A DNA stretch of 64,000 nt from positions 74,133-138,132 of the forward strand of contig QZKH01000002.1 of assembly GCA_003598025.1 (NCBI GenBank). Direction: 5' to 3'. The position numbers and the translations under genes are program-made. Under the pieces are notes generated by a model that was given only the letters and a program-made list of their open reading frames with translations, did no database searches and had not been told where the DNA came from. Source of the stretch: Candidatus Omnitrophota bacterium (lineage in GTDB: Bacteria > Omnitrophota > Gorgyraeia > Gygaellales > Profunditerraquicolaceae). This document shows, piece after piece, positions 1-12,701 of the stretch (position 1 is the first letter of the stretch; every line of letters starts with the position of its first letter).

Positions 1-216
1 TATATATGTTGATACAAGCGGGGATACTACAAAAGCAAATTTTGATGCCGCGCTTGAATTATTCGGGCCTAAGCATATTTTATGGGGAAGTGACTGGCCG
101 GCTAAGAAGGATATAAAAGCAGGGATTAATGCGGTGAATAATTTGGAGATTACAGAAGAAGATAGGAAGGGTATTTTAGGTTGTAATTTATTGAGTATTT
201 TTAATTCTATTGATTA
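1..216 (+). CDS. C-terminal fragment of an amidohydrolase-family (TIM-barrel metal-dependent hydrolase) protein; the 5-prime end lies outside the window
   Basis: An open frame runs from position 1 to a TAA near 214-216. It contains ...ILWGSDWP..., which looks like the C-terminal Asp region of amidohydrolase-2 family proteins. Confidence 0.35.
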
Positions 217-337
217 AATTTAAGAAAGCTTAACGATCCGCTTTTGTTGCATAGCACGGAGAGAACTTAAAAAATAATCAAGGTAAGCATAATGTGTTAA
301 GTCTTTCTTATCGTTAGCTAATATTAAGGAGAGCAAA

Positions 338-673
338 ATGAAAGATTTTCTGCAGAAAATAATGAAATCTTGGACTTGTAGACACGATATTTTTATATTA
401 TATATTCTTGTGCTATTGTCCTATATGGGTCTCCTATTGAATTTAAGACTCATATCACGTTTGGCAAATATTATCAATAGGATTTCAGTGGTATTAGACG
501 CTTCCAGGATGAGGACCGAAGTTACATCAATACAATTATCAGAACTCACGCAAAAAATTGACTTGTTAAAGATCAGTTATGAAAATGTTATGACATTAGT
601 TCATACATTCTTAATTATAATAGGTGCTCTTCTTATATTTGTAACAGTCAGTCAATTATTTAAGAAACAGTGA
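338..673 (+). CDS. hypothetical small membrane protein
   Basis: 111-aa ORF with two hydrophobic segments and GGAG upstream of the ATG. No recognisable motif. Confidence 0.3.
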   Translation: MKDFLQKIMKSWTCRHDIFILYILVLLSYMGLLLNLRLISRLANIINRISVVLDASRMRTEVTSIQLSELTQKIDLLKISYENVMTLVHTFLIIIGALLIFVTVSQLFKKQ

Positions 674-758
674 TTTAATAATGAGCTGGATAATTCTATT
701 AATAAGTAAAGTCGATGTTGGAGTCAGTAAGTGATCAAGTAAGCGAAAGGATACAATT

Positions 759-1511
759 ATGCAGATGCAAAAAGAAGTCCATCTGACCGGTAAAGATTTA
801 ACACAAATGGTCCAGCTTAGGCCTGAAGATGTGGGAAAATATGCGATTGTGCCCGGGCCAAAAGACAGGCTCGATGTACTCATGAAAAAAATTGAGAGCC
901 CGATAAAGAATTTCTCATTTATGGAATATACCATGTATACCGGGACTTACCAGGGGATAAAAATTACCGGGATCAACGGCGGAAGGTTTTCAACGGATAC
1001 TGCAATTACTTCCGAAGTCATGTGCAATGCCGGAATAAAAAACATTATCAGGATCGGCACCTGCGGTGCACTGGATGAAAATATAAGAGTCGGCGATCTT
1101 TTCATCGTTGACGAAGTGATCCGGGGAGACGGCGTTACGCCGTATTATGTTGATAAAGATTTTAAGACGCAGGCTAATAAAGAGATAAGCGATGTTGTAT
1201 ACCATATTGCTAAGAGCAAAGGGCTTAATGTGCACCGCGGTACTGCCTGGACAACAGATGCGCTTTTACGCGAGACAAGGGAGATAGTCGAAGCAAAACG
1301 CAAGGAGGGCGCGCGTGCCGTAGATATGGTCTCTTCAACACTTTTAACGATCGCCCAGGTACACAATGTTAAAGCAGGTTCAATTCTGGCAGTAAGCGAC
1401 AATGTTATAACAGGTGAGATGGGCTTTATGAATCCTTTGTATTACATGGCAGAGACAAATCTTATTAATATTGCTTTGGAGGCCGTAAAAGAGCTTGAAG
1501 CCGCTTCTTAA
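759..1511 (+). CDS. PNP/UDP-family nucleoside phosphorylase, probably 5-methylthioadenosine phosphorylase given the gene context
   Basis: 250 aa with PNP/UDP phosphorylase family-1 features (GINGGRFS...E..., IRIGTCGAL). It sits directly upstream of mtnA and a class II aldolase. Confidence 0.6.
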   Translation: MQMQKEVHLTGKDLTQMVQLRPEDVGKYAIVPGPKDRLDVLMKKIESPIKNFSFMEYTMYTGTYQGIKITGINGGRFSTDTAITSEVMCNAGIKNIIRIGTCGALDENIRVGDLFIVDEVIRGDGVTPYYVDKDFKTQANKEISDVVYHIAKSKGLNVHRGTAWTTDALLRETREIVEAKRKEGARAVDMVSSTLLTIAQVHNVKAGSILAVSDNVITGEMGFMNPLYYMAETNLINIALEAVKELEAAS

Positions 1512-1544
1512 TCAAGGAGGGACGGTTCTTAGATTAAAGCAGAA

Positions 1545-2507
1545 GTGTCCCTAATAAAAAGGATATGGCACATGAAATATTCACCACTATTTTGGCCAAT
1601 CAGATTGCAGGGTAATAAAATAATTGTTTTGGATGAAACCCTGCTTCCGCACAAGCTGAACTTTATTACCGTCAGGGATTATAAAGACTCATGCCGCGTA
1701 ATCAAACAGATGAAAACCCGCGCAATAGGCCAGGTCTTGTTAGTTTTCTATACCTTCTTGCTTATCCTCAAGCAAAATAACGCCAAGAAAAACACGTTGC
1801 CATTACTCAAGAAGATAGCTAATGCCTTAAATTCAACACGGCCTACACTTTCATTCAAATATATTACCGATATGGTCTTAAGCTGGGCCCAGGCAGATGG
1901 CAAACTCGAGAAAAAAATATTAAGCTTCCTGGAGATGCTTAAAAACATGCGTATAAGGCAAGCTAAAGACTTAAGTAAATTGATTAAGAATAATGACGCA
2001 ATACTTACCCATTGTAATATCAGCGGGCTCTTAAGCCTTGCAGCGGATTTTTCTAGAAAAGAAAAGAAAAAGATCCGTTTTTATGTTACTGAAACCCGGC
2101 CATACTTACAGGGTTCGCGCCTGACTGCCTGGGAATTAAAGAACTCCGGTTTTGATGTTACGGTAATAGCCGACAATATGGTTGCCCAGGTAATGAAAGA
2201 AGGAAAAATATCAAAAGTTGTCGTCGGTGCAGACCATTTAGCGCGAAACGGAGATATCGCAAATAAAATCGGGACTTACCAGATAGCGTTGCTTGCCAAG
2301 CACTTTAAAATACCTTTTTATGCGGTTTGCCCTCCGGCATCTAACGCCAAGGCAGGGAGCGATATAAAGATTGAAATAAGGCCCGAAGATGAATTACTGG
2401 TTTTTAACGGGAAGAAAATCGCTCCTGAAGGCGTAAACGGTTATTATCCGGCATTTGATATTACGCCCGATAAATTGATCACTAGGCATATTTACATGGG
2501 GATTTAA
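1545..2507 (+). CDS. mtnA: S-methyl-5-thioribose-1-phosphate isomerase (eIF-2B alpha/beta/delta family)
   Basis: Motifs typical of MtnA/eIF2B-related isomerases (LLP, GADHLARNGDIANKIGTYQIALLAKHFKIPFYAVCP). The real start is probably the ATG near 1572. Confidence 0.7.
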   Translation: MSLIKRIWHMKYSPLFWPIRLQGNKIIVLDETLLPHKLNFITVRDYKDSCRVIKQMKTRAIGQVLLVFYTFLLILKQNNAKKNTLPLLKKIANALNSTRPTLSFKYITDMVLSWAQADGKLEKKILSFLEMLKNMRIRQAKDLSKLIKNNDAILTHCNISGLLSLAADFSRKEKKKIRFYVTETRPYLQGSRLTAWELKNSGFDVTVIADNMVAQVMKEGKISKVVVGADHLARNGDIANKIGTYQIALLAKHFKIPFYAVCPPASNAKAGSDIKIEIRPEDELLVFNGKKIAPEGVNGYYPAFDITPDKLITRHIYMGI

Positions 2508-2508
2508 T

Positions 2509-3504
2509 ATGAGTGAAATAGATTTAGCCAAAGAGCAGATAATCAAAACAGGGAAAAGATTATATGAAGCCGGGCTTGCGGTTGCAAAGTCAGGGAATTT
2601 GAGCATAAAGATAGACCCTAAAACTATCCTTATAACAGCTACTTCAACGGCTTTGGGTCAGCTGAGCCCGGAAGATATTGTTTCGGTAGAATTAGATAGC
2701 CTTAAGTGCAGCGATAGAAATAAACCCAGTTCTGAACTCCCCTTGCATAGCCTCATCTATAAGAATTCCGCAGCTTGCGTAGTATTACATGCGCACCCGC
2801 CGTTAATTAACGGTTATTTTGCGGTAAATGATAATCTTGAGGCAATGACTTTTGAAACCAGGTTTTATTTAGGTAATGTCCCGGTCATAAAACAGGATAC
2901 CCCCACCGTTACTAACCCCGCACCCGTAATCGAGGCGCTGAAAAATAGCAATATAGTTGTCTTAAAAAACCACGGTGTGGTGTCTATTGCTGATAATTTT
3001 AAGGATGCACTTGCTTTAGTCGAGGCCCTTGAAGAAGCAATAAAATCAGCAGTGGTTGCCAGGCTGTTCAGCAAAGGCAACTTAAGCAATGCCGAAGAGG
3101 TCATTAAAGAAAGATTATCTTCTGATAAGGTATATCCTATGTTTTCAAAAGAGCATATACAGGCAATAGTCGATTTGGTCAATGATGACGATTTTATTGC
3201 CCAAAAGGGCAAGGAGCTTGATTTGACTGTAAACCTTGCAATAAAGCTTAACGAAACAAATCAGGCGTATAAATTTAATTTTGATAAAGGAAAGATAATC
3301 AGGCTGGACTGTGATGCGGATGCTCCTTTTGTAATTTCAGCTCCTGCGGCAGTCTGGGAACAGGTATTTTTAGGCAAGCTCGATTCATTTGTAGCTGTTA
3401 CGCAGGGGAAGATGAAATTGGAAGGCCAATTGGGCCAGCTTTCAAAATGGTATGTGCCCTTTAGCCGGCTCTTCGAAATATTTAAGCAGGTGAAATTTAA
3501 ATGA
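2509..3504 (+). CDS. class II aldolase/adducin-domain protein (MtnB dehydratase or Ald2-type MTRu-1-P aldolase) fused to a C-terminal SCP2 sterol-carrier-like domain
   Basis: The N-terminal 200 aa have the class II aldolase fold signature (LHAHPP..., HG). The C-terminal 110 aa resemble SCP2 (FVISAPAAVWEQVFLGKLDSFVAVTQGKMKLEGQLGQL). Confidence 0.6.
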   Translation: MSEIDLAKEQIIKTGKRLYEAGLAVAKSGNLSIKIDPKTILITATSTALGQLSPEDIVSVELDSLKCSDRNKPSSELPLHSLIYKNSAACVVLHAHPPLINGYFAVNDNLEAMTFETRFYLGNVPVIKQDTPTVTNPAPVIEALKNSNIVVLKNHGVVSIADNFKDALALVEALEEAIKSAVVARLFSKGNLSNAEEVIKERLSSDKVYPMFSKEHIQAIVDLVNDDDFIAQKGKELDLTVNLAIKLNETNQAYKFNFDKGKIIRLDCDADAPFVISAPAAVWEQVFLGKLDSFVAVTQGKMKLEGQLGQLSKWYVPFSRLFEIFKQVKFK

Positions 3505-4982
3505 ATACTAAATTATTAATAAACGGCCAGCTTATCGAGACGAAGCAAAAGGAAAGAATCCTGAACCCTTCAACAGGCAGGGTTATTGAAGAAGTTTCTC
3601 TTGCTTCAAAGGCTGAACTGGAGAATGCCCTTGAGTCAGCGCGCATTGCTTTTGACCGTGGCCAGTGGCCAAGGCTGGGGTATGATGAAAGAAGGGAATT
3701 CATCCTAAAGATTAAGCAGGGTATTTTGGATAATGCAGCAGAGTTGGCAAAGATAGAGACGCTTAACACCGGCAAGCCGATAAAAGAAACAACATTTATG
3801 GATATCCCGTCTTCGGCTAAGAGCTTTGAGTATATGGCGGATAATTTTGAGAAGTTCCTGAGTGAAGAGAAAATATCTATACAGCAAGAGGCAGAGTGCA
3901 GGCTTATGCGTTCGGCCCGCGGCGTAGCCGTATTGATAATCCCATGGAATTATCCTTTGTTAATCGCCTCCTGGAAACTCGCCTCTGCGCTGTGCGCAGG
4001 TAACACCGTGATTTTAAAACCTTCAAGCCTGACACCTTTAAGTGTTTTAGAATTAGCCAGGATCATACATGATATAGGCTTTCCAAAAGGAGCGGTAAAT
4101 ATTATAAACGCGCCAGGCGCCGAAGCCGGCCAGCTGCTTTGCGCAAGCAAGTCAGTTGATATGGTATCATTTACCGGTAGTAACGAGGTCGGCCGGCAGA
4201 TAATCAATTATACCTCCACTAATGTCAAGAAACTGATAATGGAGTTAGGAGGTAAATCTGCCAGCATTATTATGGATGATGTGGACCTTGATGTTGCAGT
4301 AAACAGCAATCTATGTTCGATATTTCTGAATCAGGGCCAGATGTGCACGGCGATGTCACGCATACTCGTTCATGAAAAAATTTACGATAAGTTTGTTGAA
4401 ACCTTTGTCAGAAAAACCAGGTCAATAAAACTAGGGCAGGGAGAAGATTTTCAGACTCAAATGGGGCCGTTGATCTCGATTTCACAGATAAAGAAAATCA
4501 TTACTTATATAGATAAAGCAAAAAAAGAAGGGGCACACGTTTGTTGCGGAGGCAGGGCGCCGGAAGACCCTTCCTTAAAAAATGGGTTTTATTTTGAACC
4601 GACCGTTATTACTAATGTAAATGCGCACATGGAGGTATTTAAAGAAGAGGTCTTTGGGCCGGTTGTCTGTATTATGAAATTCTCTTCCATAGCTGAAGCG
4701 GTTGAAATAGCTAATAACAGTGATTTTGCTTTGGCAGCGTCTATTTGGACCAATAATAAGGAAGTTTCCGATGAGATAGCAAATAAGATAAACGCCGGCA
4801 TTATCTGGATAAATACTTACGGTATGTTTTACAATCAGGCTCCTTACGGCGGTTTTAAGCAGAGCGGTTTCGGTAAAGAGCTTGGCCGGGAAGGTTTTCT
4901 TGAATATACCGGGCTTAAGAATGTCATAGTTGACCGGAACCCGCAAGGCAAGCCTCTGGTAAACTACTGGTATGGTTTTTGA
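3501..4982 (+). CDS. NAD(P)-dependent aldehyde dehydrogenase
   Basis: 493 aa with the ALDH glutamate motif (ELGGKS) and the catalytic Cys region (GQMCTA). Its start overlaps the preceding gene. Confidence 0.85.
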   Translation: MNTKLLINGQLIETKQKERILNPSTGRVIEEVSLASKAELENALESARIAFDRGQWPRLGYDERREFILKIKQGILDNAAELAKIETLNTGKPIKETTFMDIPSSAKSFEYMADNFEKFLSEEKISIQQEAECRLMRSARGVAVLIIPWNYPLLIASWKLASALCAGNTVILKPSSLTPLSVLELARIIHDIGFPKGAVNIINAPGAEAGQLLCASKSVDMVSFTGSNEVGRQIINYTSTNVKKLIMELGGKSASIIMDDVDLDVAVNSNLCSIFLNQGQMCTAMSRILVHEKIYDKFVETFVRKTRSIKLGQGEDFQTQMGPLISISQIKKIITYIDKAKKEGAHVCCGGRAPEDPSLKNGFYFEPTVITNVNAHMEVFKEEVFGPVVCIMKFSSIAEAVEIANNSDFALAASIWTNNKEVSDEIANKINAGIIWINTYGMFYNQAPYGGFKQSGFGKELGREGFLEYTGLKNVIVDRNPQGKPLVNYWYGF

Positions 4983-5227
4983 TGAAGCTTAAACTGAATT
5001 TATACCCGATAGCATCGGACTTAGAGGGTAAAATAGATGAAATCCTAAATAAAGCAGTTGAGAACCGTGCTAAGCTTATCGAAATAGCTTATGGCAAGGC
5101 GTCAGAGGATATTAAAAAAAGGATACTGAATTTTCTAAACCGTAAAGATAAGCGTATTCTTTACCACCGTCTTGAAAAATCAAAAGAGGGGTGGGGAAGG
5201 ATATACATTCATTTTAGGTGGAAATAA
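4979..5227 (+). CDS. small Smr-domain-like protein whose catalytic residues appear degenerate
   Basis: 82 aa. The pattern LNLYP...IAYGKA...GWGRIYIHF parallels the Smr LDLHG...HGKG...GG..L scaffold but with substitutions. Confidence 0.3.
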   Translation: MMKLKLNLYPIASDLEGKIDEILNKAVENRAKLIEIAYGKASEDIKKRILNFLNRKDKRILYHRLEKSKEGWGRIYIHFRWK

Positions 5228-5649
5228 TTAACAAGGAGGCGGATGTGGGTAATAATTATTCCGGGCAAGAGAGGCGTAAGTTTAAAAGAGTTAAGATAAA
5301 CCTGGTAGTAGTTTATCATCCTGACAGGCCTTTGGACGTGGTGGTCATGCAGGGGTCTAAAGAGGAAAGGGCTACTATGCTTGATATAAGCCAGGGCGGT
5401 ATGTCAATCCTGGCAAAGACAAATATCCCCATTTCAACTAATGTATGGATAAAATTTACGCTTATGAGTTCGGACAAAGACCATGCCGATTTCTATGGCA
5501 ATATGGAAGTGAAAGGGCAGGTGCGTTACGGCATAGCTGAGCCCGGCGGTCGATACAGGCTGGGTATAAGCTTTTTGGGTTTGAACGAAAAAGACAGTAT
5601 AAACATCTCCAGCTTTGTAGAATCGTTAGAAAAAGGCAAAAAGAGTTAA
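5218..5649 (+). CDS. PilZ-domain (c-di-GMP-binding) protein
   Basis: Arg-rich RRKFKRVK motif followed by D.SQGG (LDISQGGMSI), as in PilZ. Confidence 0.55.
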   Translation: MEIINKEADVGNNYSGQERRKFKRVKINLVVVYHPDRPLDVVVMQGSKEERATMLDISQGGMSILAKTNIPISTNVWIKFTLMSSDKDHADFYGNMEVKGQVRYGIAEPGGRYRLGISFLGLNEKDSINISSFVESLEKGKKS

Positions 5650-7167
5650 ATGGATATTATTAAAACACTGCAGGAGCGTATAAACACAGATGCCGATAAA
5701 CCGGCTATAATTTTTCGAGGCGGCCAGATATCTTTTAAGGAATTAATAACCAAGGTATATTCTTTAGCAGACAGCCTCGCAAAAATCGGCGTTAAGAATT
5801 CAGATAAAGTAGCTATATACCTGCCTAATTGCCCTGAATATTTCATAAGCTACCTGGCGGCATGGTGTATGGGGTTGGCGGTTGTCCCCTTAGACTATAT
5901 GCTTACCGAAGATGAATTGAATTCGTGTATTGGGCATTCAGAGGCAAAAGTGCTTATCGCCAGGCAGAAACCGGTGATATCACTAAATAATATAAAATCC
6001 AGAAACACAAAGCTTACCCATATTATTGTATCTAATCCTTCTGATAGCGGATTCCTTAAATTCGATGATATGTGTGTTACCTATAAGGCAGGCCCGAAAA
6101 AAGCTTATTCAGAAAAGGATTATGCGATTATTTTTTACACATCAGGCACTACCGGTAAACCCAAGGGTGTCCTGATAAATTACCGTCAATTAGGCGCTCC
6201 CGTACAATCAATGAGTTTTTTTACGGATTTAAACGACAAGGATATTGCCTTGTGCGCATTGCCCTTTTCTCACCTGGGAGGCCTGATTTATATCTTAAAC
6301 TGTGTTTCTTTTGGCATTACGGTTGTGCTTATGGAGCGGTTTAGCCCGTTAGAGTTCCTCAAAAATATAGAGGCCTTTAAGGTGAGCTGCTTCTGGATAG
6401 TGCCCTCGATGTATTATGCCTTCCTTCAGTTAAAAGAATTTGAAAATATCGATCTTTCTTCGCTCAGATGGATAGTTACTTTCGGGGCCTCAAATTCCCC
6501 CGAGGCATTAAGAAGGTTCCATAAATATTGCCCGAGTGCTTATATTTTAAACGGCTGGGGCCTGACCGAAACGAACGCCCCAACTACGGTTCTGCCTATG
6601 GGCTCAAATAAAATCGAGAGTGTAGGCCGTCCTGCCCCGTGGATCGAAGTGAAGATATTTTCCGCAGAGGGTTTGGATACGCCGGACAAAGAATTGCCAA
6701 GAGGCGAAATAGGCGAAATTGTTGTCAAAAGCTGGGTGGTTACTGACGGATATTATAAAGATGAGAACCTTACGCTTCAGACGATCCGTAACGGATGGTT
6801 CCATACCGGAGACCTGGGCAGGTTTGATGACGATGGGCACCTATACATTGTCGGCAGAAAAAAAGAAATGATAAAAGTCGGGGGAGAAATAGTTTTTGAG
6901 CCCGAGGTTGAATCAGTGATTTACAGCCATCCGGATGTAAGCGAAGCAGCTGTTATAGGAGTAAGCGATAAACTAAGAGGCGAAGTACCCAAGGCCTTCA
7001 TTGTCCTTAAAGAAGGCAGGCAGCTTTCAGAGGAGGACATAAGATTTTTCTTAAGACAGCATCTTGCGCATTTTAAAATCCCGCATTATTTCGAATATAA
7101 GGAAAGTCTCCCTAAGAACCGGACAGGCAAGATTGATAAAGAAGCGCTCAGGACAGGTTCTTATTGA
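5650..7167 (+). CDS. AMP-dependent synthetase/ligase (acyl-CoA synthetase family)
   Basis: YTSGTTGKPKGV AMP-binding motif, plus GWGLTE and a C-terminal ...PKNRTGKIDK. Confidence 0.85.
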   Translation: MDIIKTLQERINTDADKPAIIFRGGQISFKELITKVYSLADSLAKIGVKNSDKVAIYLPNCPEYFISYLAAWCMGLAVVPLDYMLTEDELNSCIGHSEAKVLIARQKPVISLNNIKSRNTKLTHIIVSNPSDSGFLKFDDMCVTYKAGPKKAYSEKDYAIIFYTSGTTGKPKGVLINYRQLGAPVQSMSFFTDLNDKDIALCALPFSHLGGLIYILNCVSFGITVVLMERFSPLEFLKNIEAFKVSCFWIVPSMYYAFLQLKEFENIDLSSLRWIVTFGASNSPEALRRFHKYCPSAYILNGWGLTETNAPTTVLPMGSNKIESVGRPAPWIEVKIFSAEGLDTPDKELPRGEIGEIVVKSWVVTDGYYKDENLTLQTIRNGWFHTGDLGRFDDDGHLYIVGRKKEMIKVGGEIVFEPEVESVIYSHPDVSEAAVIGVSDKLRGEVPKAFIVLKEGRQLSEEDIRFFLRQHLAHFKIPHYFEYKESLPKNRTGKIDKEALRTGSY

Positions 7168-7173
7168 ATCCGG

Positions 7174-8199
7174 ATGAACATAAATAATTTCAACCTTGAA
7201 GAGTTGGAGAAAGTGTTGCGCGAATGTGGTCAGCCTGTTTTTCGCGCCCGGCAGATTTTTGCCTGGGTACATAAGAGGAAAGTCTTTGATTTCGGAAAAA
7301 TGTCGGATATGCCGTCAAGCTTAAGAGAAAAACTCAAAAATAAATATTCTATTCAGGATTTAAGCATAAGGAACATAACACGGTCAAGAGACGGAACGCA
7401 AAAATACCTTTTTTCTTTGAATGATGCCAATCTTATTGAAGCGGTGAATATCCCTGCGGCAGGCAGGGTTACGGGATGCGTTTCTACGCAAGCCGGCTGC
7501 AGGTTTGCTTGTAAATTTTGCGCAAGCGGAATTCAGGGATTTGTCAGGAACCTGGAATGTTCTGAGATAATTGAGCAGATTCTTGTCCTTGACAGAGATG
7601 CTTCCGGCGGCCTCACTAACCTCGTTTTTATGGGCACAGGCGAGCCGTTAGATAATTACGATAATGTTATCAAGGCGGCAAGGATAATAAATTCGCAATA
7701 CAGCATTAATCTTGGCGCAAGGAAGATAACCATTTCAACTTCCGGTGTCATTGCCGGCATAGAGCGTCTCAGTAACGAAGGGCTGCAAATCGAACTATCG
7801 GTTTCTTTGCATGCTGCAGATGATAGGACAAGGTCAAGCCTGATGCCCATAAACAAGGTTTATCCTCTAAGTGATCTGATTAAAGCCTGCAGAAAATATA
7901 CCGAGAAAACTAACCGGCAGATAACTTTCGAATACATCCTTATTAAGGGCATTAATTCTACATTGCAGGATGCGCTTAATTTAGTTAAAGTATTAAAAGG
8001 GTTATCCACAATCAAGGTTAATCTTATAGTATCTAATATCGTAGAAGAATCCGGACTTGAGCCGGCGGGCCTGAAAGATGCCGCTGCTTTTAAAGGGTGC
8101 CTTATTAAACACGGCATAAACGTGACGCTGCGTAAGCCGCGCGGACAGGATATTGATGCTGCCTGTGGGCAATTGAGGTTGAGATATGGGGAAGGATAG
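7174..8199 (+). CDS. rlmN: 23S rRNA (adenine2503-C2)-methyltransferase, radical SAM
   Basis: CRFACKFCASG radical-SAM cysteine motif with the conserved RlmN N-terminus (RARQIF.W) and C-terminal region. Confidence 0.9.
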   Translation: MNINNFNLEELEKVLRECGQPVFRARQIFAWVHKRKVFDFGKMSDMPSSLREKLKNKYSIQDLSIRNITRSRDGTQKYLFSLNDANLIEAVNIPAAGRVTGCVSTQAGCRFACKFCASGIQGFVRNLECSEIIEQILVLDRDASGGLTNLVFMGTGEPLDNYDNVIKAARIINSQYSINLGARKITISTSGVIAGIERLSNEGLQIELSVSLHAADDRTRSSLMPINKVYPLSDLIKACRKYTEKTNRQITFEYILIKGINSTLQDALNLVKVLKGLSTIKVNLIVSNIVEESGLEPAGLKDAAAFKGCLIKHGINVTLRKPRGQDIDAACGQLRLRYGEG

Positions 8200-8866
8200 T
8201 TCACTGTTCATAGTTCATAGTTCATGGATTAAGGCGGCAAATTTTATCTTGGCCTTATTTTTATTCTTTGGGATCATCGGGTGTCAGAAGAGGGATATAA
8301 AGAATATTGATTCTAAGGGCACGAATATCATTTGTTTCGGGGATAGCATAACCTTTGGTTACGGCGTTGACCCGGATAAAAGCTATCCTGCGGTTTTAGC
8401 CGGCATAACGCAGTGGCAGGTCATTAACGCAGGGGTAGATGGCGATACTTCAACCGATGGCTTAAACAGGATTAACAAAGATGTTTTAGAAAAAGACCCC
8501 TTACTTGTTGTTATTGAGTTCGGCGGTAATGATTTTCTCAAGAAAATACCAAAAACGCAAACCGCTGAAAACGTAAATAAAATGATTGATCATATACATG
8601 GACGCGGCTCAATGGTAGCGTTGTTAGATATAAGTACAGGCATTTTACTTAGCGATTACCATAAGCTTTTGAAAGACATAGCATCAGAAAGAGGCGCTAT
8701 TTTTATCCCAAAGATTTTAACAGGAATAATCACTAACCCCAGTATGAAGAGCGATTTCCTGCATCCTAATGAAAATGGTTACGCTGTTATCGCCCAACGT
8801 GTTTACCGCACAATTATCCCTTACCTGAATAGGAATTTTACTTTAAAGAGCATCGCCAGCAAATAA
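8186..8866 (+). CDS. SGNH/GDSL hydrolase lipoprotein (TesA/lysophospholipase L1-like)
   Basis: GDSIT block (IICFGDSITFGYG), a GGNDF block, a C-terminal DxxH-type region and a lipobox (GIIGC). The only in-frame ATG, at 8186, overlaps the rlmN stop and the heptamer repeat array. Confidence 0.7.
   Translation: MGKDSSLFIVHSSWIKAANFILALFLFFGIIGCQKRDIKNIDSKGTNIICFGDSITFGYGVDPDKSYPAVLAGITQWQVINAGVDGDTSTDGLNRINKDVLEKDPLLVVIEFGGNDFLKKIPKTQTAENVNKMIDHIHGRGSMVALLDISTGILLSDYHKLLKDIASERGAIFIPKILTGIITNPSMKSDFLHPNENGYAVIAQRVYRTIIPYLNRNFTLKSIASK
8198..8227. repeat. tandem heptamer array (TTCACTG TTCATAG TTCATAG TTCATGG) belonging to the dispersed GTTCATA/TATGAAC family
   Basis: Read directly in the sequence. 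Four 7-nt units at the rlmN/SGNH junction. Confidence 0.85.
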
Positions 8867-8929: not shown

Positions 8930-9409
8930 GTGATGAGAAATATCCTTCACACGCCAATCCCTGAGAAAAGATATCGGGCCAGGGCTTTTGCCCTGGTAGA
9001 GACGCTTCTTGCCACGGCGATAATGGTGTTTGGGCTTTGCGCGATACTGATAACCTACATATCCTGCCTTTTACTTATTACTACCGCTAAGAACATTAAT
9101 ATAGCTACTAATGCTACGTTAAGCCTGATGGAGGGGATACGCAGCAGCGATTTTACACAGATATCCGCTAATTATAACGGATTAAATTTTGTTTTAAACG
9201 ATATACCTTTAAGCAGGGGAGTAGTTTATGTTGATGATACAAATGCCGAGCTTTTACAGGTGGATATAAGCGTGTGTTGGCAGCAGGGTAACAGGGTAAT
9301 CGGAGAAGATGCAAATTTAAACGGTATGCTTGATCCGGGAGAAGATGTAAATGGTAACGGGATCATTGATTCCACGGTAAAGGCGACAACTTTAATAGCC
9401 AACAGGTGA
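8930..9409 (+). CDS. minor pseudopilin (type II secretion/type IV pilus, GspH/I- or PilV-like)
   Basis: Prepilin-type N-terminal motif (AFALVETLLA) followed by a hydrophobic helix. 159 aa. Confidence 0.5.
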   Translation: MMRNILHTPIPEKRYRARAFALVETLLATAIMVFGLCAILITYISCLLLITTAKNINIATNATLSLMEGIRSSDFTQISANYNGLNFVLNDIPLSRGVVYVDDTNAELLQVDISVCWQQGNRVIGEDANLNGMLDPGEDVNGNGIIDSTVKATTLIANR

Positions 9410-9410
9410 T

Positions 9411-9932
9411 ATGAAAAGGGGCCTTACACTAATAGAAATACTTGTTGCTTCAAGTATCCTGATATTATTAATACTTGCTGTGTTTCAGGTAATGGAAGCA
9501 GGAAGGAGCGCAGTATTTACCGGGGATTTAACAGTGCAATTGCGCCAGGAGATAATCAGAACTTTTATGAGGATGGAAAGGGAGTTAAAAGAGGCACGCC
9601 CCGCGCTGGTGAGTTTAACAAGCGGCAATAGTAGTTCGACTATCACATTCAGTGTCCCTCAGGATATTAATGGCGACGGGACGGTTTTGGATGATTTTGG
9701 CGCTATTGAATGGTCTGCCGTTATTACATATGCTTTAAACGGTTCTAATCAAATAATCAGGACTTCATCCGGTGTTACTAATGTGCTTGCAAACGATATT
9801 GTCAGTTTACAGTTCAGCAGGCCGCTTTCCCCTGTTAATATCTTACAGATTGATATGACGGCGCGCAAGATTTCTTCTTCTGGCAGGCAGTTACAGGACG
9901 CCGGGCAAATGGTAATAGAAATGAGGAATTGA
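9411..9932 (+). CDS. minor pseudopilin (GspJ/PilW-like)
   Basis: MKRGLTLIEILVA prepilin cleavage/methylation motif plus an N-terminal hydrophobic helix. Confidence 0.6.
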   Translation: MKRGLTLIEILVASSILILLILAVFQVMEAGRSAVFTGDLTVQLRQEIIRTFMRMERELKEARPALVSLTSGNSSSTITFSVPQDINGDGTVLDDFGAIEWSAVITYALNGSNQIIRTSSGVTNVLANDIVSLQFSRPLSPVNILQIDMTARKISSSGRQLQDAGQMVIEMRN

Positions 9933-9935
9933 TAA

Positions 9936-11243
9936 ATGCAATATTTCTTCCCAAGGTTAGCAAATAAAAAGGGAGTAGCTTTAATTACTACATTCTTTGC
10001 AATTACCGTGCTGCTTATTTTTTGCGGGCTTTTTGTTATGGTAAGTATAAGCCAAAATATGGCCTCGGATAGGTTCAGAAGGAGAACGCGCGCTTTTTAC
10101 CTGGCTGAATCGGGTTTAGACAGGGCAATTTTTTGGTTAAGGACGCAACCTTCTCCGCCCGTAGGAGACAAGATTGATCCGTGGGGGGGCGCGCAGAATT
10201 TAGGCGAAGGCAGCTATACAGTTTCTATCTTTGACCTGGGCATGGTGGGAGCCAATTCCAGTATCCGAAGGTACAGGGTAAGGTCTTCAGGGTCTTTTGG
10301 GAATATAACCCGCACTTTGACTAATTATGTACAGGTTGATAACTACGCCCGGTATCTCTGGTTTACGGATCGGGAGGTTTATGGAGGAGTAAATGTCTGG
10401 TTTTGGACGCAGGACAGGCTAAACGGCCCAACGCATACCAATTCTCACTTCAATATTTATGGCAATCCTGTTTTTGAAAGCGAGGTCCGCTCCGTAGACG
10501 ACTATATAAGGTTTTATAATAACGGTATTAATGTTAATTTGCAGCAGACTTCCAATTCACCTTATGATGAACCAGTTTTTCTGGAAGGAGTTGACTTCGG
10601 AGTGCAGCCAACAACAATGCCTAACCAGGCTTTAAGCCTGCGCTCAGCGGCAAATAGCAGCGAAGGCATTTATTTAAGCGGCAATACAAAGGTGGTACTA
10701 AACAGCGACGGGACAATGAGTGTCACTAATTCCAAGAAAAAGTGGAAAGACAAAGATATGCCATTACCGGCAAACGGCGCCCTCTTTGTCAATAACGGTT
10801 CTTTGCATGTTTCCGGAACGCTTAATGGAAGGCTTACGGTCGGTTCCAGCAGTGATGTGGTCATCCCGGATAGCATTGTATACGCCGATGACCCAAAGCT
10901 TAACCCCAATTCCGATGATGTCCTCGGGGTTATTTCCGAAAGAGATATAGTTGTAAGTTATGACGCGCCTCACGATCTTGAGATAGACGCTTGCATGATG
11001 TCCCTGGGTACATCTTTTATGATGGAGGATTGGTGGGTAGGCCCGGCTAAAGGCACATTATCTGTTTATGGCGGTATAATTCAGGATGAAAGGGGTCCCG
11101 TCGGGACTTTTAACAGCCTGGCCGGGACAAAAGTAAGCGGGTACTCAAAAGATTATTCTTATGACCCGAGATTGCTGAGCAACCCGCCGCCTTACATGCC
11201 AACAACCGGCGATTATATAACTTTATCCTGGCAGGAGAATTAA
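9936..11243 (+). CDS. large pseudopilin (GspK/PilX-like)
   Basis: N-terminus KKGVALITTFFAITVLLIF resembles the GspK signature (GVAL...). 435 aa, largely beta-type sequence. Confidence 0.45.
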   Translation: MQYFFPRLANKKGVALITTFFAITVLLIFCGLFVMVSISQNMASDRFRRRTRAFYLAESGLDRAIFWLRTQPSPPVGDKIDPWGGAQNLGEGSYTVSIFDLGMVGANSSIRRYRVRSSGSFGNITRTLTNYVQVDNYARYLWFTDREVYGGVNVWFWTQDRLNGPTHTNSHFNIYGNPVFESEVRSVDDYIRFYNNGINVNLQQTSNSPYDEPVFLEGVDFGVQPTTMPNQALSLRSAANSSEGIYLSGNTKVVLNSDGTMSVTNSKKKWKDKDMPLPANGALFVNNGSLHVSGTLNGRLTVGSSSDVVIPDSIVYADDPKLNPNSDDVLGVISERDIVVSYDAPHDLEIDACMMSLGTSFMMEDWWVGPAKGTLSVYGGIIQDERGPVGTFNSLAGTKVSGYSKDYSYDPRLLSNPPPYMPTTGDYITLSWQEN

Positions 11244-11246
11244 TAT

Positions 11247-11690
11247 ATGAAGCCAAAGACAATATATATTATTACTGCAGCTTTAGCAGCGGTTGTCTTT
11301 TCGCTGACTATGTCCATAAGTTTTAAGGATGATAATAAACAGCCTACATTGATGAAAAGGCAAGCCCGTGTCCATAGAACTGAATTTCCCGGTCCTTCAT
11401 TTACAAGTCAGCAGTCTTATAGCGGGTTTACCTCGGTGCCCGGTATTACCGTTGTAAAACCTCCGAAAAAGAAAGAGCCTGTTGAGTCAGTAATAAATAA
11501 TGAACCTTTATCGGATAAGCAAGATATCATTGATAAACAAAGCGTGGATGTTTCCCAAAAAGAGCCTTCCGGATCCCCGGACGAAAATAACGAAGAAGAT
11601 AATAGCACCTCAGGTATTACCGAGCTAAATAAGCGCCCCCCGGAAAAAGAAGCCCGCGAAATGAATCAACATGGGATTATGATGTGGTAA
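11247..11690 (+). CDS. hypothetical membrane-anchored or secreted low-complexity protein
   Basis: N-terminal hydrophobic segment followed by a Pro/Glu/Ser-rich tail. No motif. Confidence 0.3.
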   Translation: MKPKTIYIITAALAAVVFSLTMSISFKDDNKQPTLMKRQARVHRTEFPGPSFTSQQSYSGFTSVPGITVVKPPKKKEPVESVINNEPLSDKQDIIDKQSVDVSQKEPSGSPDENNEEDNSTSGITELNKRPPEKEAREMNQHGIMMW

Positions 11691-11742
11691 TTCTGCTACG
11701 CCCTAAGTAGGCTCAAGTAGGTAGGGCTTCGCAGCAATATAA

Positions 11743-11825
11743 TGCCGAGAGAGGGAGTTGAACCCTCACGAGGTTGCCCTCACCAGTTTTTGAGACTGGC
11801 GTGTATGCCATTCCACCACCTCGGC
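11743..11825 (-). tRNA. tRNA-Leu (anticodon CAA), class II with a long variable arm
   Basis: The reverse complement folds as a cloverleaf. Acceptor is GCCGAGG/CTCTCGGC. The anticodon stem CCAGT/ACTGG carries loop CTCAAAA. There is a long variable arm, a GAGGG-TTCAACT-CCCTC T-arm and discriminator A. Confidence 0.8.
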
Positions 11826-11946
11826 ATAAGTAGATTTGTTTTGAGGTAAGAATATTTACCAGGAAATGCTAGCTACGGCATTTGCTGATTTGCCTTACTT
11901 TTAGCTACAGCAAATCAATCCTGGGGCCTTTTAGCCCGAAGGATTT

Positions 11947-12270: not shown

Positions 12271-12271
12271 G

Positions 12272-12344
<73 letters not shown>

Positions 12345-12408
12345 ATTATTATATTTTGCGTTCGTCCCGAGCTACCTTCTCTTGTCTTATGTACCGAGGA
12401 GCAGCCCC

Positions 12409-12522: not shown

Positions 12523-12544
12523 TTGGCTTAAATTTAGTGTATTA

Positions 12545-12573: not shown

Positions 12574-12594
12574 TACCTTCTGGCTGCCAAACAA

Positions 12595-12690: not shown

Positions 12691-12701
12691 CCAAGTAGCC
12701 C

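Follow-up and report, generated by a model that had tools for sequence, protein, structure and literature searches.

A compact operon in the 64-kb stretch of Candidatus Omnitrophota DNA analysed here (64,000 nucleotides; hereafter the window) seems to degrade a 5'-deoxynucleoside derived from SAM, yielding adenine, DHAP and a two-carbon acid, by means of atypical forms of the known DHAP-shunt enzymes. Five closely packed genes, all in one direction, encode a phosphorylase (PNP), an isomerase, an aldolase-fold protein, an aldehyde dehydrogenase (ALDH) and an acyl-CoA synthetase (Table 1). The reading we favour, though tentatively, is that the genes at 759-4982 and 5650-7167 form a variant DHAP shunt through which 5'-deoxyadenosine (5'-dAdo) released by a co-clustered radical-SAM enzyme is removed.

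Table 1. Position and assignment of the genes at the start of the window.
Feature	Position	Strand	Evidence
Amidohydro_2, last 71 codons (3' end)	2..217	+	translation
PNP-family phosphorylase, DeoD/Udp-like, hexameric-type, divergent	759..1511	+	PF01048 115.8 bits
MtnA-like pentose-1-phosphate aldose-ketose isomerase	1572..2507	+	PF01008 201.9 bits
Class II aldolase-fold + SCP2 protein	2509..3504	+	Aldolase_II 115 bits
Non-acylating NAD(P)-aldehyde dehydrogenase	3501..4982	+	PF00171 536 bits
Smr-domain gene	4979-5227	+	Pfam 28.6 bits
PilZ-domain gene	5218-5649	+	Pfam 49.4 bits
FadD-like acyl-CoA (or acyl-AMP/ACP) synthetase	5650..7167	+	PF00501 + PF13193

Gene arrangement and conservation

A first-pass annotation of this DNA had described a phosphorylase, MtnA, a class II aldolase and an overlapping ALDH, with an acyl-CoA synthetase next to them; all five open reading frames were recovered in place and matched their families well above threshold, and the ALDH start and the aldolase stop share 4 nt (ATGA). 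The gene order indeed follows the DHAP-shunt logic recognised there, i.e., phosphorolysis, 1-phosphate isomerisation, C3-C4 cleavage and then aldehyde oxidation. The Smr and PilZ genes, whose tblastn searches against the 85 other loci gave no homologue, are probably a lineage-specific insertion outside the pathway.

Co-conservation of the five genes was determined in 85 related loci (a few being one contig fetched twice), counting only Omnitrophota loci with sufficient flank. In 76/77 loci MtnA is found ahead of the aldolase, and the ALDH lies downstream of it in 73/74 as well as in all 5 of the divergent clusters described below. PNP is found in 60/70 loci, and a sub-clade without a dedicated PNP (8/70) has an Aminotran_4 gene in the same place. 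The synthetase follows the ALDH in 54/68 loci, the median distance between the two being 32 nt; it abuts the ALDH in many of them and has orthologues in the Ca. Desulfofervidus cluster (L086) and in L089, bearing out the earlier suggestion that it could act together with the set. The module order is kept in about 80 Omnitrophota species-level genomes, and the arrangement is far beyond chance.

The operon does not stand alone as a salvage operon; it is one module of a bigger, multi-phylum cluster. In 57/59 loci with room, an Amidohydro_2 gene precedes the module, and the fragment at the edge of the window shares 65% identity with the C-terminal end of the L001 Amidohydro_2 protein. This is the last gene of a conserved upstream block, just beyond the window, that includes KS, B12 radical-SAM, ACP, cyclase, SRPBCC and SDR genes.

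The first-pass annotation had also reported that mtnC, mtnD and mtnW are missing. Our Pfam scan covered the genes at 338-8866 and, from 12.7 to 64 kb, all 40 open reading frames that we took for genes and that encode 150 aa or more; pilin-like frames at 8930-11690 lie between these two sets. Among the scanned genes there is no MtnC, MtnD/ARD, MtnW/RLP, MtnK or MtnN, the sole HAD protein (40247-40885) being phosphoglycolate-phosphatase-like; later methionine-salvage genes were found neither in the window nor in the related loci.

Phosphorylase, isomerase, ALDH and synthetase

The phosphorylase is 77-87% identical among Omnitrophota orthologues and scores best with the NCBIfam models Udp (109.6 bits) and DeoD (94 bits), all under cut-off; identity with MtnP/MTAP is ruled out by the MTAP model (21.6 bits versus 274.85). 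It retains the purine-type acid of the S-D-N motif and two phosphate Arg. In all 8 cluster PNPs compared, the 5'-OH-binding His is replaced by Met (Ser in one) and EME by DMV; the window enzyme is also without the ribose-binding Glu (a Val there) and one phosphate Arg. Taking residue roles to be those of E. coli PNP and UP, where His hydrogen-bonds the 5'-OH and the Asp is purine-type, the Met together with the retained Asp fits a 5'-deoxy purine nucleoside, which the enzyme is predicted to phosphorolyse to a pentose-1-phosphate. The lost Glu and Arg mean that even phosphorolysis is only predicted, and count against the 5'-deoxyadenosine reading.

The isomerase reading frame opens with GTG at 1545, but ATG 1572 agrees with homologue starts and is likely the true start. 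The protein passes the NCBIfam subfamily model TIGR00524 (214.3 bits; cut-off 185.85) and falls below the equivalog TIGR00512 (234.3 < 279). Among PDB entries it matches T. maritima MtnA (1t9k) best, and both catalytic residues, the Cys of THCN and the Asp of GAD, are present.

The ALDH has the ELGGKS Glu and GQMCTA Cys. It reaches no NCBIfam equivalog, the best being BADH (501 < 668), and its top PDB matches are betaine-aldehyde dehydrogenases (approximately 408 bits). Translationally coupled to the aldolase, it is predicted to oxidise an aldehyde to an acid, which the synthetase is predicted to activate. The best NCBIfam model for the latter is the long-chain-fatty-acid-CoA ligase PRK06187 (420.8 < 476), with a score of 238/729 for the acetate-CoA ligase model, and its WGLTET motif has Gly at the position of the gate Trp of acetyl-CoA synthetase. 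A ligase that is FadD-like and not acetate-specific counts against the 5'-deoxyadenosine reading.

The aldolase-SCP2 protein

The aldolase-fold domain (residues approximately 1-189) is followed by a disordered linker (191-200) and an SCP2 lipid-binding domain (approximately 205-331) that is kept in every family member and had been overlooked. The protein is predicted to split a ketose-1-phosphate into DHAP and an aldehyde. It had been compared with the Ald2-type aldolase of the DHAP shunt, and a phylogeny alongside MtnB and Ald2 had been proposed; in our NJ tree it lies outside MtnB and does not group with Ald2. Membership of the Ald2/DrdA/FucA group is rejected, as the protein forms a separate clade and shares 22% identity with E. 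coli Ald2 and 27% with DrdA. Both of these are FucA-like with a Tyr113 motif, whereas the window protein has Phe-Glu there, plus SCP2. Membership of MtnB is likewise rejected: MtnB models give 53-71 bits against cut-offs of 137-281, less than several aldolase models, and, with APIP as the root, 161/200 NJ bootstraps place Aquifex aq_1979 outside the family clade. APIP is absent from the phmmer PDB matches. The aldolase-fold protein keeps the FucA-type Glu (E76) as well as the phosphate motif. In alignments, the invariant Glu116 of the family falls at the position of the catalytic Glu139 in human MtnB/APIP and of a Glu in aq_1979; here the proven aldolases FucA, Ald2 and DrdA carry Tyr-Met/Leu instead. 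That the protein is not an orthologue of proven 5-deoxyribulose-1-phosphate aldolases and shares Glu116 with MtnB weighs against our preferred reading.

Association with a B12 radical-SAM enzyme

PNP, MtnA, aldolase-SCP2 and ALDH stay together in five divergent clusters, from Ca. Desulfofervidus and metagenome contigs, with proteins 33-63% identical to those of the window. Four of the five have the same BchE/HpnJ-like B12 radical-SAM gene (207-220 bits) within the module, in shuffled gene order and with short or overlapping gaps: it adjoins PNP in L086, sits in the order MtnA-radical SAM-fragment-aldolase in L087 and L088, and precedes Amidohydro_2 and PNP in L090. We found this association in no paper. 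In BchE/HpnJ-type enzymes, the 5'-deoxyadenosyl radical takes a hydrogen and 5'-dAdo is released, which is also textbook knowledge (PMC13459092). The released 5'-dAdo inhibits radical-SAM enzymes and is removed by kinase-or-phosphorylase, isomerase and aldolase chemistry, the known DHAP-shunt enzymes being bifunctional for MTA and 5'-dAdo (PMC6079011, PMC10986504).

HAE3 (HpnN-like) RND lipid exporters and DUF1302 proteins are present in L086 and L088, and DUF1329 in L086 only, which argues against mere 5'-dAdo disposal. KS, ACP, SDR, cyclase, SRPBCC and ACPS genes occur in Omnitrophota, L089 or L090. To our knowledge, it is not usual for radical-SAM gene clusters to include dedicated genes for removing 5'-dAdo, and this, together with the tight cross-phylum link, suggests more than by-product removal.

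Proposed pathway

From the gene content, domains, catalytic residues, co-conservation and radical-SAM link, we infer all substrates and reactions as follows. 5'-dAdo, an inhibitory by-product of the co-clustered BchE/HpnJ-like enzyme and of other radical-SAM enzymes, would be converted by PNP to adenine and 5-deoxyribose-1-phosphate, and the MtnA-like enzyme would isomerise the latter to 5-deoxyribulose-1-phosphate. The SCP2-fused aldolase would cut C3-C4 to give DHAP and acetaldehyde, the coupled ALDH would produce acetate, and the FadD-like ligase would turn the acid into its CoA (or ACP) thioester, acetyl-CoA. Some relatives may run a second, ATP-saving branch alongside, in which a Zn-dehydrogenase would oxidise C4 of 5-deoxyribulose-1-phosphate, and an LsrF-type thiolase would convert the resulting 3-hydroxy-2,4-pentanedione-5-phosphate to DHAP and acetyl-CoA. 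The 'DeoC' of L004 passes the NCBIfam LsrF thiolase equivalog cut-off (356.4 > 297); LsrF-type and Zn-ADH genes lie between aldolase and ALDH in L004, L005, L038 and L084, and after the ALDH in L072. On chemical grounds, the LsrF substrate has the same constitution as C4-oxidised 5-deoxyribulose-1-phosphate, and these inserts support a methyl-ended C5 intermediate, but their rarity (about 5 of approximately 70 loci) counts against the scheme. Given the radical-SAM partner and the thiolase, acetaldehyde and acetate are likelier than methylthioacetaldehyde and methylthioacetate.

Alternative explanations

HpnH adenosylates diploptene and MqnE adenosylates enolpyruvyl-benzoate, and an adenosyl group might similarly be on-pathway here; this is the main rival reading, which we consider unlikely. 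The B12 enzyme would couple C5' of the 5'-deoxyadenosyl group to a hydrophobic acceptor and the module would trim the ribose to a C2 extension: PNP would take off adenine, the MtnA-like enzyme would isomerise, the aldolase, its SCP2 gripping the lipid tail, would release DHAP and R-CH2-CHO, and the ALDH would form R-CH2-COOH, loaded by the ligase onto CoA/ACP for the neighbouring KS/ACP/KR/cyclase or export. The net result would be a two-carbon homologation from C5'/C4' of the SAM ribose. Interleaving of the radical-SAM gene with the module across phyla, at overlapping or nearly overlapping junctions, favours this, as do the hydrophobic residue at the 5' position of PNP, the FadD-like ligase, the exporter and DUF genes of L086 and L088, and the KS-to-ACPS set. 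There are precedents in HpnH/HpnG, where a PNP-family gene beside a SAM-using enzyme handles an on-pathway adenosyl intermediate (PMC13459092), and in the fluorinase FlA/FlB-isomerase-aldolase-ALDH system, which does likewise (PMC3999930). However, the adenosylating HpnH and MqnE lack a B12 domain, whereas the enzyme here resembles the hydrogen-abstracting type; the equivalog-level thiolase of some loci suits a C5 skeleton that ends in a methyl group and not in a lipid; the PNP-less sub-clade implies that a housekeeping phosphorylase can feed the substrate; and no candidate acceptor is recognisable. Quite improbable is the MTA-fed shunt of the first-pass annotation, in which methylthioribulose-1-phosphate would yield DHAP and 2-methylthioacetaldehyde, then methylthioacetate for activation by the synthetase. 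Its chemistry is identical to that with 5'-dAdo, both being served by known DHAP-shunt enzymes (PMC6079011, PMC10986504); the hydrophobic methylthio group suits the Met in the PNP 5' pocket, and the ligase is not acetate-type. Nothing points to MTA specifically, however: spermidine synthase, ACC/AHL synthase and sulfur-recovery genes are absent from all 90 loci, the conserved radical-SAM partner yields 5'-dAdo, the MTAP score is low, and the LsrF-type branch suits a methyl ketone. We also know of no fate for methylthioacetyl-CoA.

Since the class II aldolase fold is functionally plastic, also housing dehydratases, epimerases, decarboxylases and dioxygenases, the aldolase-fold protein could be an MtnB-like dehydratase or other non-aldolase on an O2-independent route from (methylthio/deoxy)ribulose-1-phosphate, with the ALDH acting later. 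Glu116 fits this, as does the class IV aminotransferase, of a type able to finish methionine salvage, that replaces PNP in one sub-clade. In AraD, an acidic residue at the same position drives retro-aldol cleavage; with this, the MtnB scores, the tree, the retained E76 and phosphate motif, the lack of MtnC/D/W/X anywhere nearby, and an ALDH coupled by overlapping codons that needs an aldehyde supplied only via aldol cleavage, we regard this as very unlikely. General ribonucleoside catabolism, a bacterial analogue of the haloarchaeal ribulose-1-phosphate aldolase route, would lead via ribose-1-phosphate and ribulose-1-phosphate to DHAP and glycolaldehyde, and on to glycolate. The Udp/DeoD affinity of PNP, a weak NCBIfam ribulose-1-phosphate aldolase match (65 bits versus 300) and the common oxidation of glycolaldehyde by ALDHs agree with it, but Met occupies the 5'-OH site, the isomerase is in the MtnA clade and not of the ribose-1,5-bisphosphate type (115 bits versus 314), and the radical-SAM link and lipid/ACP genes would be left unexplained, making this highly improbable.

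For 5'-dAdo disposal, our preferred reading, the SCP2 domain counts as a point against, its role with acetaldehyde not being obvious. Speculatively, it may hold or channel the aldehyde in a hydrophobic environment on its way from the aldolase to the ALDH.

Gene organisation

In the window, which comes from a Candidatus Omnitrophota MAG, the plus strand between positions 759 and 8866 carries a continuous run of genes that either overlap or are separated by tiny gaps. The phosphorylase, MtnA-like isomerase, class II aldolase-fold protein and aldehyde dehydrogenase (ALDH) at its head, together with a nearby acyl-CoA synthetase, had been described in the first-pass annotation as a methionine-salvage-like operon; the genes and their families are indeed present, but the picture was incomplete, since the SCP2 domain on the aldolase and a wider conserved cluster had been missed. 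The absence of mtnC, mtnD and mtnW noted there is borne out: no MtnC, MtnD, MtnW, MtnK or MtnN was found among the genes scanned in the 64-kb window, no MtnC, MtnD or MtnW/MtnX in the window or in approximately 90 related loci, and the sole HAD protein of the window is phosphoglycolate-phosphatase-like. Rfam detected no SAM, SAH, cobalamin or fluoride riboswitch within or upstream of the operon, its only matches in the window being two tRNAs.

The Smr gene has a TTG start and overlaps the ALDH stop; Smr and PilZ together separate the ALDH from the ligase, and tblastn found no counterpart of either in any of the other 85 related loci. RlmN, directly after the ligase, keeps this position in most Omnitrophota loci and is one of two further radical-SAM (rSAM) genes in the window.

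Features of the window and of related loci. Coordinates without prefix refer to the window; L086 to L090 are divergent clusters, the other L numbers related Omnitrophota loci.
Position	Strand	Feature	Support or remark
2-217		Final 71 residues of Amidohydro_2 protein	
338-673		Hydrophobic 111-aa ORF	No Pfam family; between Amidohydro_2 and PNP
759-1511	+	PNP_UDP_1 phosphorylase (PNP)	Pfam 115.8 bits
1545/1572-2507	+	IF-2B/MtnA-like isomerase	Pfam 201.9 bits
2509-3504	+	Aldolase_II with C-terminal SCP2 domain	Pfam 115 and 28.3 bits
3501-4982	+	ALDH	Pfam 536 bits; ATGA overlap with aldolase
4979-5227	+	Smr-domain protein	Pfam 28.6 bits
5218-5649	+	PilZ-domain protein	Pfam 49.4 bits
5650-7167	+	AMP-forming acyl-CoA synthetase (ACS, ligase)	PF00501 plus PF13193
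7174-8199	+	RlmN	TIGR00048 383 bits
8186-8866	+	GDSL lipase	Pfam 87.9 bits
8930-11690		Four ORFs after GDSL gene	Hydrophobic pilin-like N-termini
11743-11825	-	tRNA	
12272-12344	-	tRNA	
33816-34301		161-aa protein	PF04008 "adenosine specific kinase" 250 bits; no NCBIfam model reached
34354-35904		516-aa ORF	No Pfam family at E <= 1e-5
43917-44414		FeoB_N GTPase	
44395-45852		Gate/FeoB_C membrane part	Overlaps FeoB_N ORF
47554-48570		AmmeMemoRadiSam-system rSAM	TIGR04337, 328 > 220; followed by NUDIX gene
L001:1-6322; L004:1-5531; L089:12174-18131; L090:140-5306		Conserved upstream block	
L003:6201-7013		Class IV aminotransferase	
L004:5596-6313		CrcB and DUF190	CrcB TIGR00494, 102 > 80
L004:9013-10843		LsrF-type insertion	LsrF equivalog NF006081, 356 > 297
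L086:2155-4458 and 10418-12693		HAE3 RND, DUF1302, DUF1329	DUF1329 in L086 only
L088:981-3395 and 10822-11883		HAE3 RND, DUF1302	
L086:7546-8004; L087:7548-8000; L088:7157-7660; L090:7383-7853		IF-2B/MtnA-fold fragment	150-167 aa

The aldolase-SCP2 family

The aldolase-fold protein, identical to NCBI locus C4533_00555 on a 409-kb contig, belongs to a two-domain family of approximately 30 clusters at 50% identity, with 44 representatives under E 1e-30 among 1.8 billion sequences. Its SCP2 domain is supported by the Pfam gathering score and by a fold match, and is kept in every member of the family; no full-length homologue (aldolase plus SCP2) was found on plasmids by tblastn. Because G29, N30, S32, E76, H80, H94, H96, E116, H155, G156 and E175 are invariant, the metal ligands (three His), the phosphate motif and the displaced catalytic Glu (FucA E73/DrdA E76) are all present; S74 is invariant or nearly so in 26 members, and the phosphate motifs G-N-x-S/S-S are kept.

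The earlier label "Ald2-type" does not hold. Identity of the aldolase-fold protein is 22% with Ald2, 27% with DrdA and 23% with FucA, it has T-F-E at the Tyr113 site (I-H-Y-M in Ald2, V-S-Y-L in DrdA), and it falls into a separate clade. The Ald2 used here is the experimentally studied protein from the leuX island of E. coli ATCC 25922, which is 58% identical to FucA; the DHAP shunt is not present in E. coli CFT073. Scores with the MtnB models TIGR03328 (64.5 bits, cut-off 137), NF006672 (71.2, cut-off 226) and NF005244 (53.4, cut-off 281) are low, and several aldolase models score higher. In neighbour-joining trees, which are small, have few references and include some partial PDB sequences taken from printed alignments, the fusion family, a few single-domain relatives and Thermus thermophilus 2fk5 form their own group, excluding Ald2/DrdA/FucA in 156 of 200 bootstraps and Aquifex aq_1979 in 161 of 200. 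Placed alongside MtnB and Ald2, the protein thus groups within neither, and on sequence grounds we regard the family as distinct from both Ald2/DrdA and MtnB.

Glu116 aligns with catalytic Glu139 of APIP, the human MtnB (sequence verified against 4m6r), and with a Glu of aq_1979. Its equivalent also occurs in many uncharacterised single-domain relatives and in 2fk5, and is not exclusive to dehydratases. Since AraD likewise relies on an acidic residue at this site for its retro-aldol reaction, Glu116 does not settle the choice between aldolase and dehydratase, and the function of the family has to be argued from context. For both domains, the best structural matches are T. thermophilus proteins (2fk5 and 2cx7). 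A split version of the fusion in Thermus was considered and rejected: the 2fk5 orthologue lies after rpoBC, with no SCP2, MtnA or PNP gene nearby.

Phosphorylase, isomerase, dehydrogenase and ligase

The isomerase most likely starts at ATG 1572, which is preceded by an AAGGA-like site and agrees with the N-termini of homologues. It reaches the subfamily model TIGR00524 (214.3 > 185.85) and misses the equivalog cut-offs of TIGR00512 (234.3 < 279) and NF004326 (252.8 < 271); the catalytic Cys (THCN) and Asp (GAD) are kept, and the best solved relative is T. maritima MtnA (1t9k). It appears to belong to the MtnA clade, of which it is the only recognisable member in the locus.

The phosphorylase belongs to PNP_UDP_1, in line with the PNP family named in the first-pass annotation, and is not the MtnP/MTAP of methionine salvage, with 21.6 bits against a cut-off of 274.85 (TIGR01694). 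Scores for DeoD (94/232), Udp (110/280), HpnG (52.8/187) and futalosine hydrolase (20.9/124.7) all lie under the cut-offs as well; the protein is a divergent enzyme of the DeoD/Udp type, outside every curated model. Eight PNPs of such clusters, drawn from several lineages, were aligned with E. coli PNP and UP. All retain the S-D-N motif of the purine type (PNP Asp204) and two of the phosphate Arg. The N-terminal His that hydrogen-bonds the ribose 5'-OH in the E. coli enzymes (PNP His4/UP His8) is Met in 7 of the 8 and Ser in one; the ribose motif E-M-E has become D-M-V, with the ribose Glu (PNP E181/UP E198) replaced by Val in all 8, and the inter-subunit phosphate Arg (R43*/R48* equivalent) is missing in all 8. 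Despite these altered ligands, the PNPs are the best-conserved proteins of the module (77-87% identity within Omnitrophota). A hydrophobic 5' pocket of this kind would fit a 5'-deoxy or 5'-substituted nucleoside, and not an ordinary ribonucleoside.

The ALDH belongs to the non-acylating superfamily, carries both catalytic residues (Cys and the general-base Glu; motifs GQMCTA and ELGGKS) and reaches no substrate-specific equivalog. The ligase is FadD-like (PRK06187, 421 bits); the Gly of its WGLTET motif sits where acetyl-CoA synthetase has its gating Trp.

Conservation within Omnitrophota

A genome scan found relatives of the aldolase-SCP2 protein in 272 species-level genomes, of which the best 80 are all Omnitrophota MAGs, some under other depositor labels. 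We compared 85 loci (a few being the same contig fetched twice) by tblastn with proteins of the window and of the first-fetched loci as queries, counting for each gene the loci with enough flank to show it. The near-universal order is B12-rSAM, ACP, cyclase (PF04199), SRPBCC, SDR, (CBM_11), hypothetical, Amidohydro_2, (CrcB, DUF190), PNP, MtnA, aldolase-SCP2, ALDH, ACS, RlmN and GDSL, with ketosynthase (KS) genes further upstream. The five genes grouped in the first-pass annotation are conserved together: alongside the aldolase, MtnA is found in 76/77 loci, ALDH in 73/74, PNP in 60/70 and ACS in 54/68, the last at a median gap of 32 nt from ALDH. Of the upstream genes, Amidohydro_2 is present in 57/59 loci, ACP in 45/48 and B12-rSAM in 35/40.

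The upstream block comprises FabF-like KS (two in L089), ACP, a PF04199 "cyclase", an SRPBCC/Polyketide_cyc2 protein, a FabG-like SDR, a CBM_11 protein with a hydrophobic N-terminus, a coiled-coil-like hypothetical protein and Amidohydro_2, and looks like a type II FAS/PKS-like cluster. In L001, just 12 nt separate Amidohydro_2 from PNP. Judging from the 71-codon Amidohydro_2 remnant and from synteny with related loci, the approximately 10 kb upstream of the window presumably hold this block.

In 8 loci of one Omnitrophota sub-clade (L003, L009, L012, L013, L020, L025, L036 and L077), a class IV aminotransferase, BCAT/PabC-like and below cut-offs, precedes MtnA in place of PNP, with no PNP within 10 kb. 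A gene for the fluoride exporter CrcB and a DUF190 gene lie exactly between Amidohydro_2 and PNP in 14 of the 61 loci with room for them. This position is curious, given that the one known route through these four enzyme steps leads to fluoroacetate; since no fluorinase-like gene was seen, it may be a coincidence. RlmN, GDSL and CrcB adjoin the module in Omnitrophota only, which probably reflects no more than synteny.

Four of the five divergent clusters share a B12-rSAM partner

Homologues found with a profile built from divergent family members carry the labels Ca. Desulfofervidus auxilii, Latescibacterota and other Omnitrophica. Outside the Omnitrophota clade, gene contexts were read for five family members and for a single-domain relative, P0137, whose 2.7-kb contig was uninformative. 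The proteins of the five clusters are 33-63% identical to those of the window.

Gene order in the five divergent clusters.
Locus	Source	Genes
L086	Ca. Desulfofervidus auxilii	HAE3 RND exporter, B12-rSAM, PNP, MtnA, IF-2B fragment, aldolase-SCP2, ALDH, DUF1329, DUF1302, FadD-like ligase
L087	JGI metagenome contig	PNP, MtnA, B12-rSAM, IF-2B fragment, aldolase, ALDH
L088	ENA metagenome contig	HAE3 RND exporter, PNP, MtnA, B12-rSAM, IF-2B fragment, aldolase-SCP2, ALDH, DUF1302
L089	JGI/NCBI metagenome contig	ligase, PNP, MtnA, aldolase, ALDH, ..., KS, KS, ACP, cyclase, SRPBCC
L090	JGI metagenome contig	ACP, cyclase, SRPBCC, SDR, hypothetical, B12-rSAM, Amidohydro_2, PNP, ACPS, MtnA, IF-2B fragment, aldolase-SCP2, ALDH

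Besides Omnitrophota, the module occurs in Ca. Desulfofervidus and at least one other lineage; one divergent member has a close homologue labelled Latescibacterota. In L089, 9 kb of flank showed no rSAM gene. Across the loci, the rSAM proteins, whose gene lies outside the window, share long motifs that make them one family, with B12-binding and Radical_SAM Pfam domains and a CX3CX2C-type motif GCPxxCxFC. They are BchE/HpnJ-like (BchE 207-220/481 bits, HpnJ 128-152/578) and match no named equivalog. From these gene contexts we conclude that PNP-MtnA-aldolase-SCP2-ALDH, usually with the ligase, travels with one B12-rSAM family and that the two are functionally linked, because the association is kept through gene-order shuffling in several lineages; mere inherited synteny was considered and rejected, since the adjacency persists in other lineages at 33-47% protein identity.

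The HAE3 RND transporters, to whose family the hopanoid exporter HpnN belongs, and the DUF1302 proteins that flank the module in L086 and L088 hint at an exported hydrophobic product. The IF-2B/MtnA-fold fragment, directly upstream of the aldolase in divergent clusters and missing from the window's clade, keeps the motifs E-x-R-P and T-D-N-M and may be a non-catalytic partner subunit.

A proposed pathway and its alternatives

The DHAP shunt is established for MtnK/MtnP-MtnA-Ald2 and for DrdKIA (PMC6079011, PMC10986504). As an MtnA-type ketose-1-phosphate connects to a translationally coupled ALDH only by aldol cleavage, the products here would be DHAP and an aldehyde. The neighbouring rSAM is of the H-abstracting type, for which 5'-deoxyadenosine (5'-dAdo) is an inhibitory by-product, making 5'-dAdo the simplest substrate. 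It would be phosphorolysed and isomerised to the ketose-1-phosphate, which C3-C4 aldol cleavage would split into DHAP and acetaldehyde; the latter would be converted to acetate by the ALDH and then to a thioester by the ligase. That the predicted enzymes form such a DHAP-shunt variant acting on 5'-dAdo is our favoured reading, to which we give slightly less than an even chance. As pure speculation, SCP2 would then be a hydrophobic conduit that passes the volatile aldehyde to the ALDH.

In five loci (L004, L005, L038, L072 and L084), an LsrF-type thiolase, whose gene reaches the LsrF equivalog cut-off, and a Zn-dependent dehydrogenase lie beside the aldolase and ALDH; in L072 the insertion follows the ALDH, and it was not found in the window. 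Oxidation of 5-deoxyribulose-1-phosphate at C4 would give 3-hydroxy-2,4-pentanedione-5-phosphate, which has the same constitution as the substrate of LsrF, and an LsrF-type split would yield DHAP and acetyl-CoA, the same end point as aldolase, ALDH and ligase. The insertion suggests that the DHAP shunt has an "oxidative-thiolytic" branch, so far undescribed, that would yield DHAP and acetyl-CoA directly. Since such a route needs a methyl-ended C5 skeleton, it is an independent hint for a 5-deoxy substrate. No connection between LsrF and 5-deoxyribulose was found in the literature searched.

Several features sit awkwardly with disposal of 5'-dAdo. The lipid-binding SCP2 domain, kept in every member, has no obvious role with acetaldehyde, and to our knowledge it is unusual for an rSAM gene cluster to have 5'-dAdo disposal genes of its own. 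In the known pairings of a PNP-family gene with a neighbouring SAM-using enzyme (HpnH/HpnG, MqnE/MqnB, FlA/FlB), the pathway runs through the adenosylated product as an intermediate (PMC13459092, PMC3999930). These misfits and precedents lead to the main alternative, that the rSAM adenosylates a hydrophobic acceptor at C5' and that the module trims the ribose, leaving C5'-C4' as a -CH2-COOH extension that is then converted to a thioester. The FadD-like ligase, the HAE3 (HpnN-like) lipid exporters and DUF1302 proteins around two divergent clusters, and the KS, ACP, KR, cyclase and even ACPS genes in Omnitrophota, L089 and L090 would all suit it, and are left unexplained by disposal. We nevertheless consider it unlikely, given that the rSAM has a B12 domain and is BchE/HpnJ-like, unlike HpnH and MqnE, that the LsrF-type branch fits a methyl end, and that one sub-clade has no dedicated PNP. 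If true, it would be categorically new, with SAM serving, in a way not known before, as a source of two carbons for building lipids or polyketides or for activating alkenes anaerobically.

The MTA-fed shunt of the first-pass annotation, with an ALDH that oxidises methylthioacetaldehyde, would follow the chemistry of the 5'-dAdo pathway, and the hydrophobic methylthio group would fit the 5' pocket of the PNP; as the phosphorylase scores far below MTAP and the conserved partner is an rSAM, which yields 5'-dAdo and not MTA, we consider it improbable. We give still less credence to a dehydratase or another activity of the fold: the fold, the metal ligands, the place after MtnA and the second Glu (APIP E139, window E116) are as in MtnB, but the protein is below all MtnB cut-offs, stands in its own clade, is followed by an ALDH and has no MtnC/D/W/X beside it. 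Ordinary ribonucleoside catabolism is the least credible reading, the closeness of the PNP to the Udp/DeoD models speaking for it and the altered 5' pocket against it.

Relation to known systems

Like the DHAP shunt and 5-deoxyribose disposal (MtnP or MtnN+MtnK, MtnA, Ald2; DrdK-DrdI-DrdA), the proposed pathway would lead from a 5'-deoxynucleoside via pentose-1-phosphate and ketose-1-phosphate to DHAP and an aldehyde, and one operon encodes both an MtnA-like isomerase and a metal-dependent enzyme of the class II aldolase fold (PMC6079011, PMC10986504). It differs in its aldolase (another clade, Phe-Glu for Tyr113, SCP2 fusion), in a DeoD/Udp-like phosphorylase with altered ribose ligands where Ald2/DrdA systems pair with MtnK or MtnP, in having ALDH and acyl-CoA ligase inside the operon where known systems reduce the aldehyde or use housekeeping enzymes, and in its physical tie to one B12-rSAM family. 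The oxidation step has one described precedent, in the fluorometabolite pathway of Streptomyces cattleya/Nocardia brasiliensis (FlA fluorinase, FlB phosphorylase, 5-FDRP isomerase, aldolase, fluoroacetaldehyde dehydrogenase), the only described route found with all four steps including ALDH. There, phosphorylase, isomerase and aldolase act in turn on a 5'-X-5'-deoxyadenosine, the resulting X-CH2-CHO is oxidised to the acid X-CH2-COOH, and the SAM-using enzyme is likewise encoded beside the phosphorylase (PMC3999930); its aldolase and ALDH are not clustered, however, and the loci described here have a B12-rSAM instead of a fluorinase/chlorinase-type SAM enzyme. HpnH/HpnG (adenosylhopane formation, adenine removal) and MqnE/MqnB (futalosine) also combine an rSAM, in their case without a B12 domain, with a PNP_UDP_1-family purine remover (PMC13459092), but keep or cyclise the ribose, which here would be isomerised and aldol-cleaved. 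LsrF of AI-2 degradation (3-hydroxy-5-phosphonooxypentane-2,4-dione thiolase) gives the end products expected of aldolase, ALDH and ligase; the loci with the insertion have no LsrK or LsrG, the partner being the Zn-dependent dehydrogenase. The combination of module and rSAM returned nothing relevant in the full-text literature searched, including by Pfam combinations, and the module is unmentioned in the ladderane-cluster paper, methionine-salvage paralogue reviews and lipid rSAM reviews.

Disposal of 5'-dAdo is a near-universal need in anaerobes rich in rSAM enzymes, and we know of only one characterised enzyme set for it (MtnK/MtnP, MtnA and FucA-like Ald2/DrdA). The locus seems to behave as a DHAP shunt whose aldolase and phosphorylase are outside the standard families, and would represent a second, non-orthologous set for 5'-deoxynucleoside cleavage, with oxidation, activation and possibly a thiolytic branch. 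Its new elements are a clade of the aldolase fold with an SCP2 fusion, a hexameric phosphorylase that seems re-tooled, and built-in oxidation and activation, by which the C2 fragment would reach a thioester rather than leave as an excreted alcohol. The strict linkage across phyla provides a first functional handle on an uncharacterised B12-rSAM family and poses a choice between dedicated by-product recycling and use of the SAM ribose as a C2 donor. As the proteins are small and soluble-looking, this question is tractable in vitro even though the organisms are uncultured.

Other features of the window

The window is nearly all plus strand, the two tRNA genes being among its few minus-strand features, and GC skew is positive throughout. 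Between 12.7 and 64 kb, the 40 ORFs of at least 150 aa judged to be genes encode housekeeping or transport functions according to a Pfam scan. FeoB is present as two overlapping ORFs, which represent either a genuine split gene or a frameshift.
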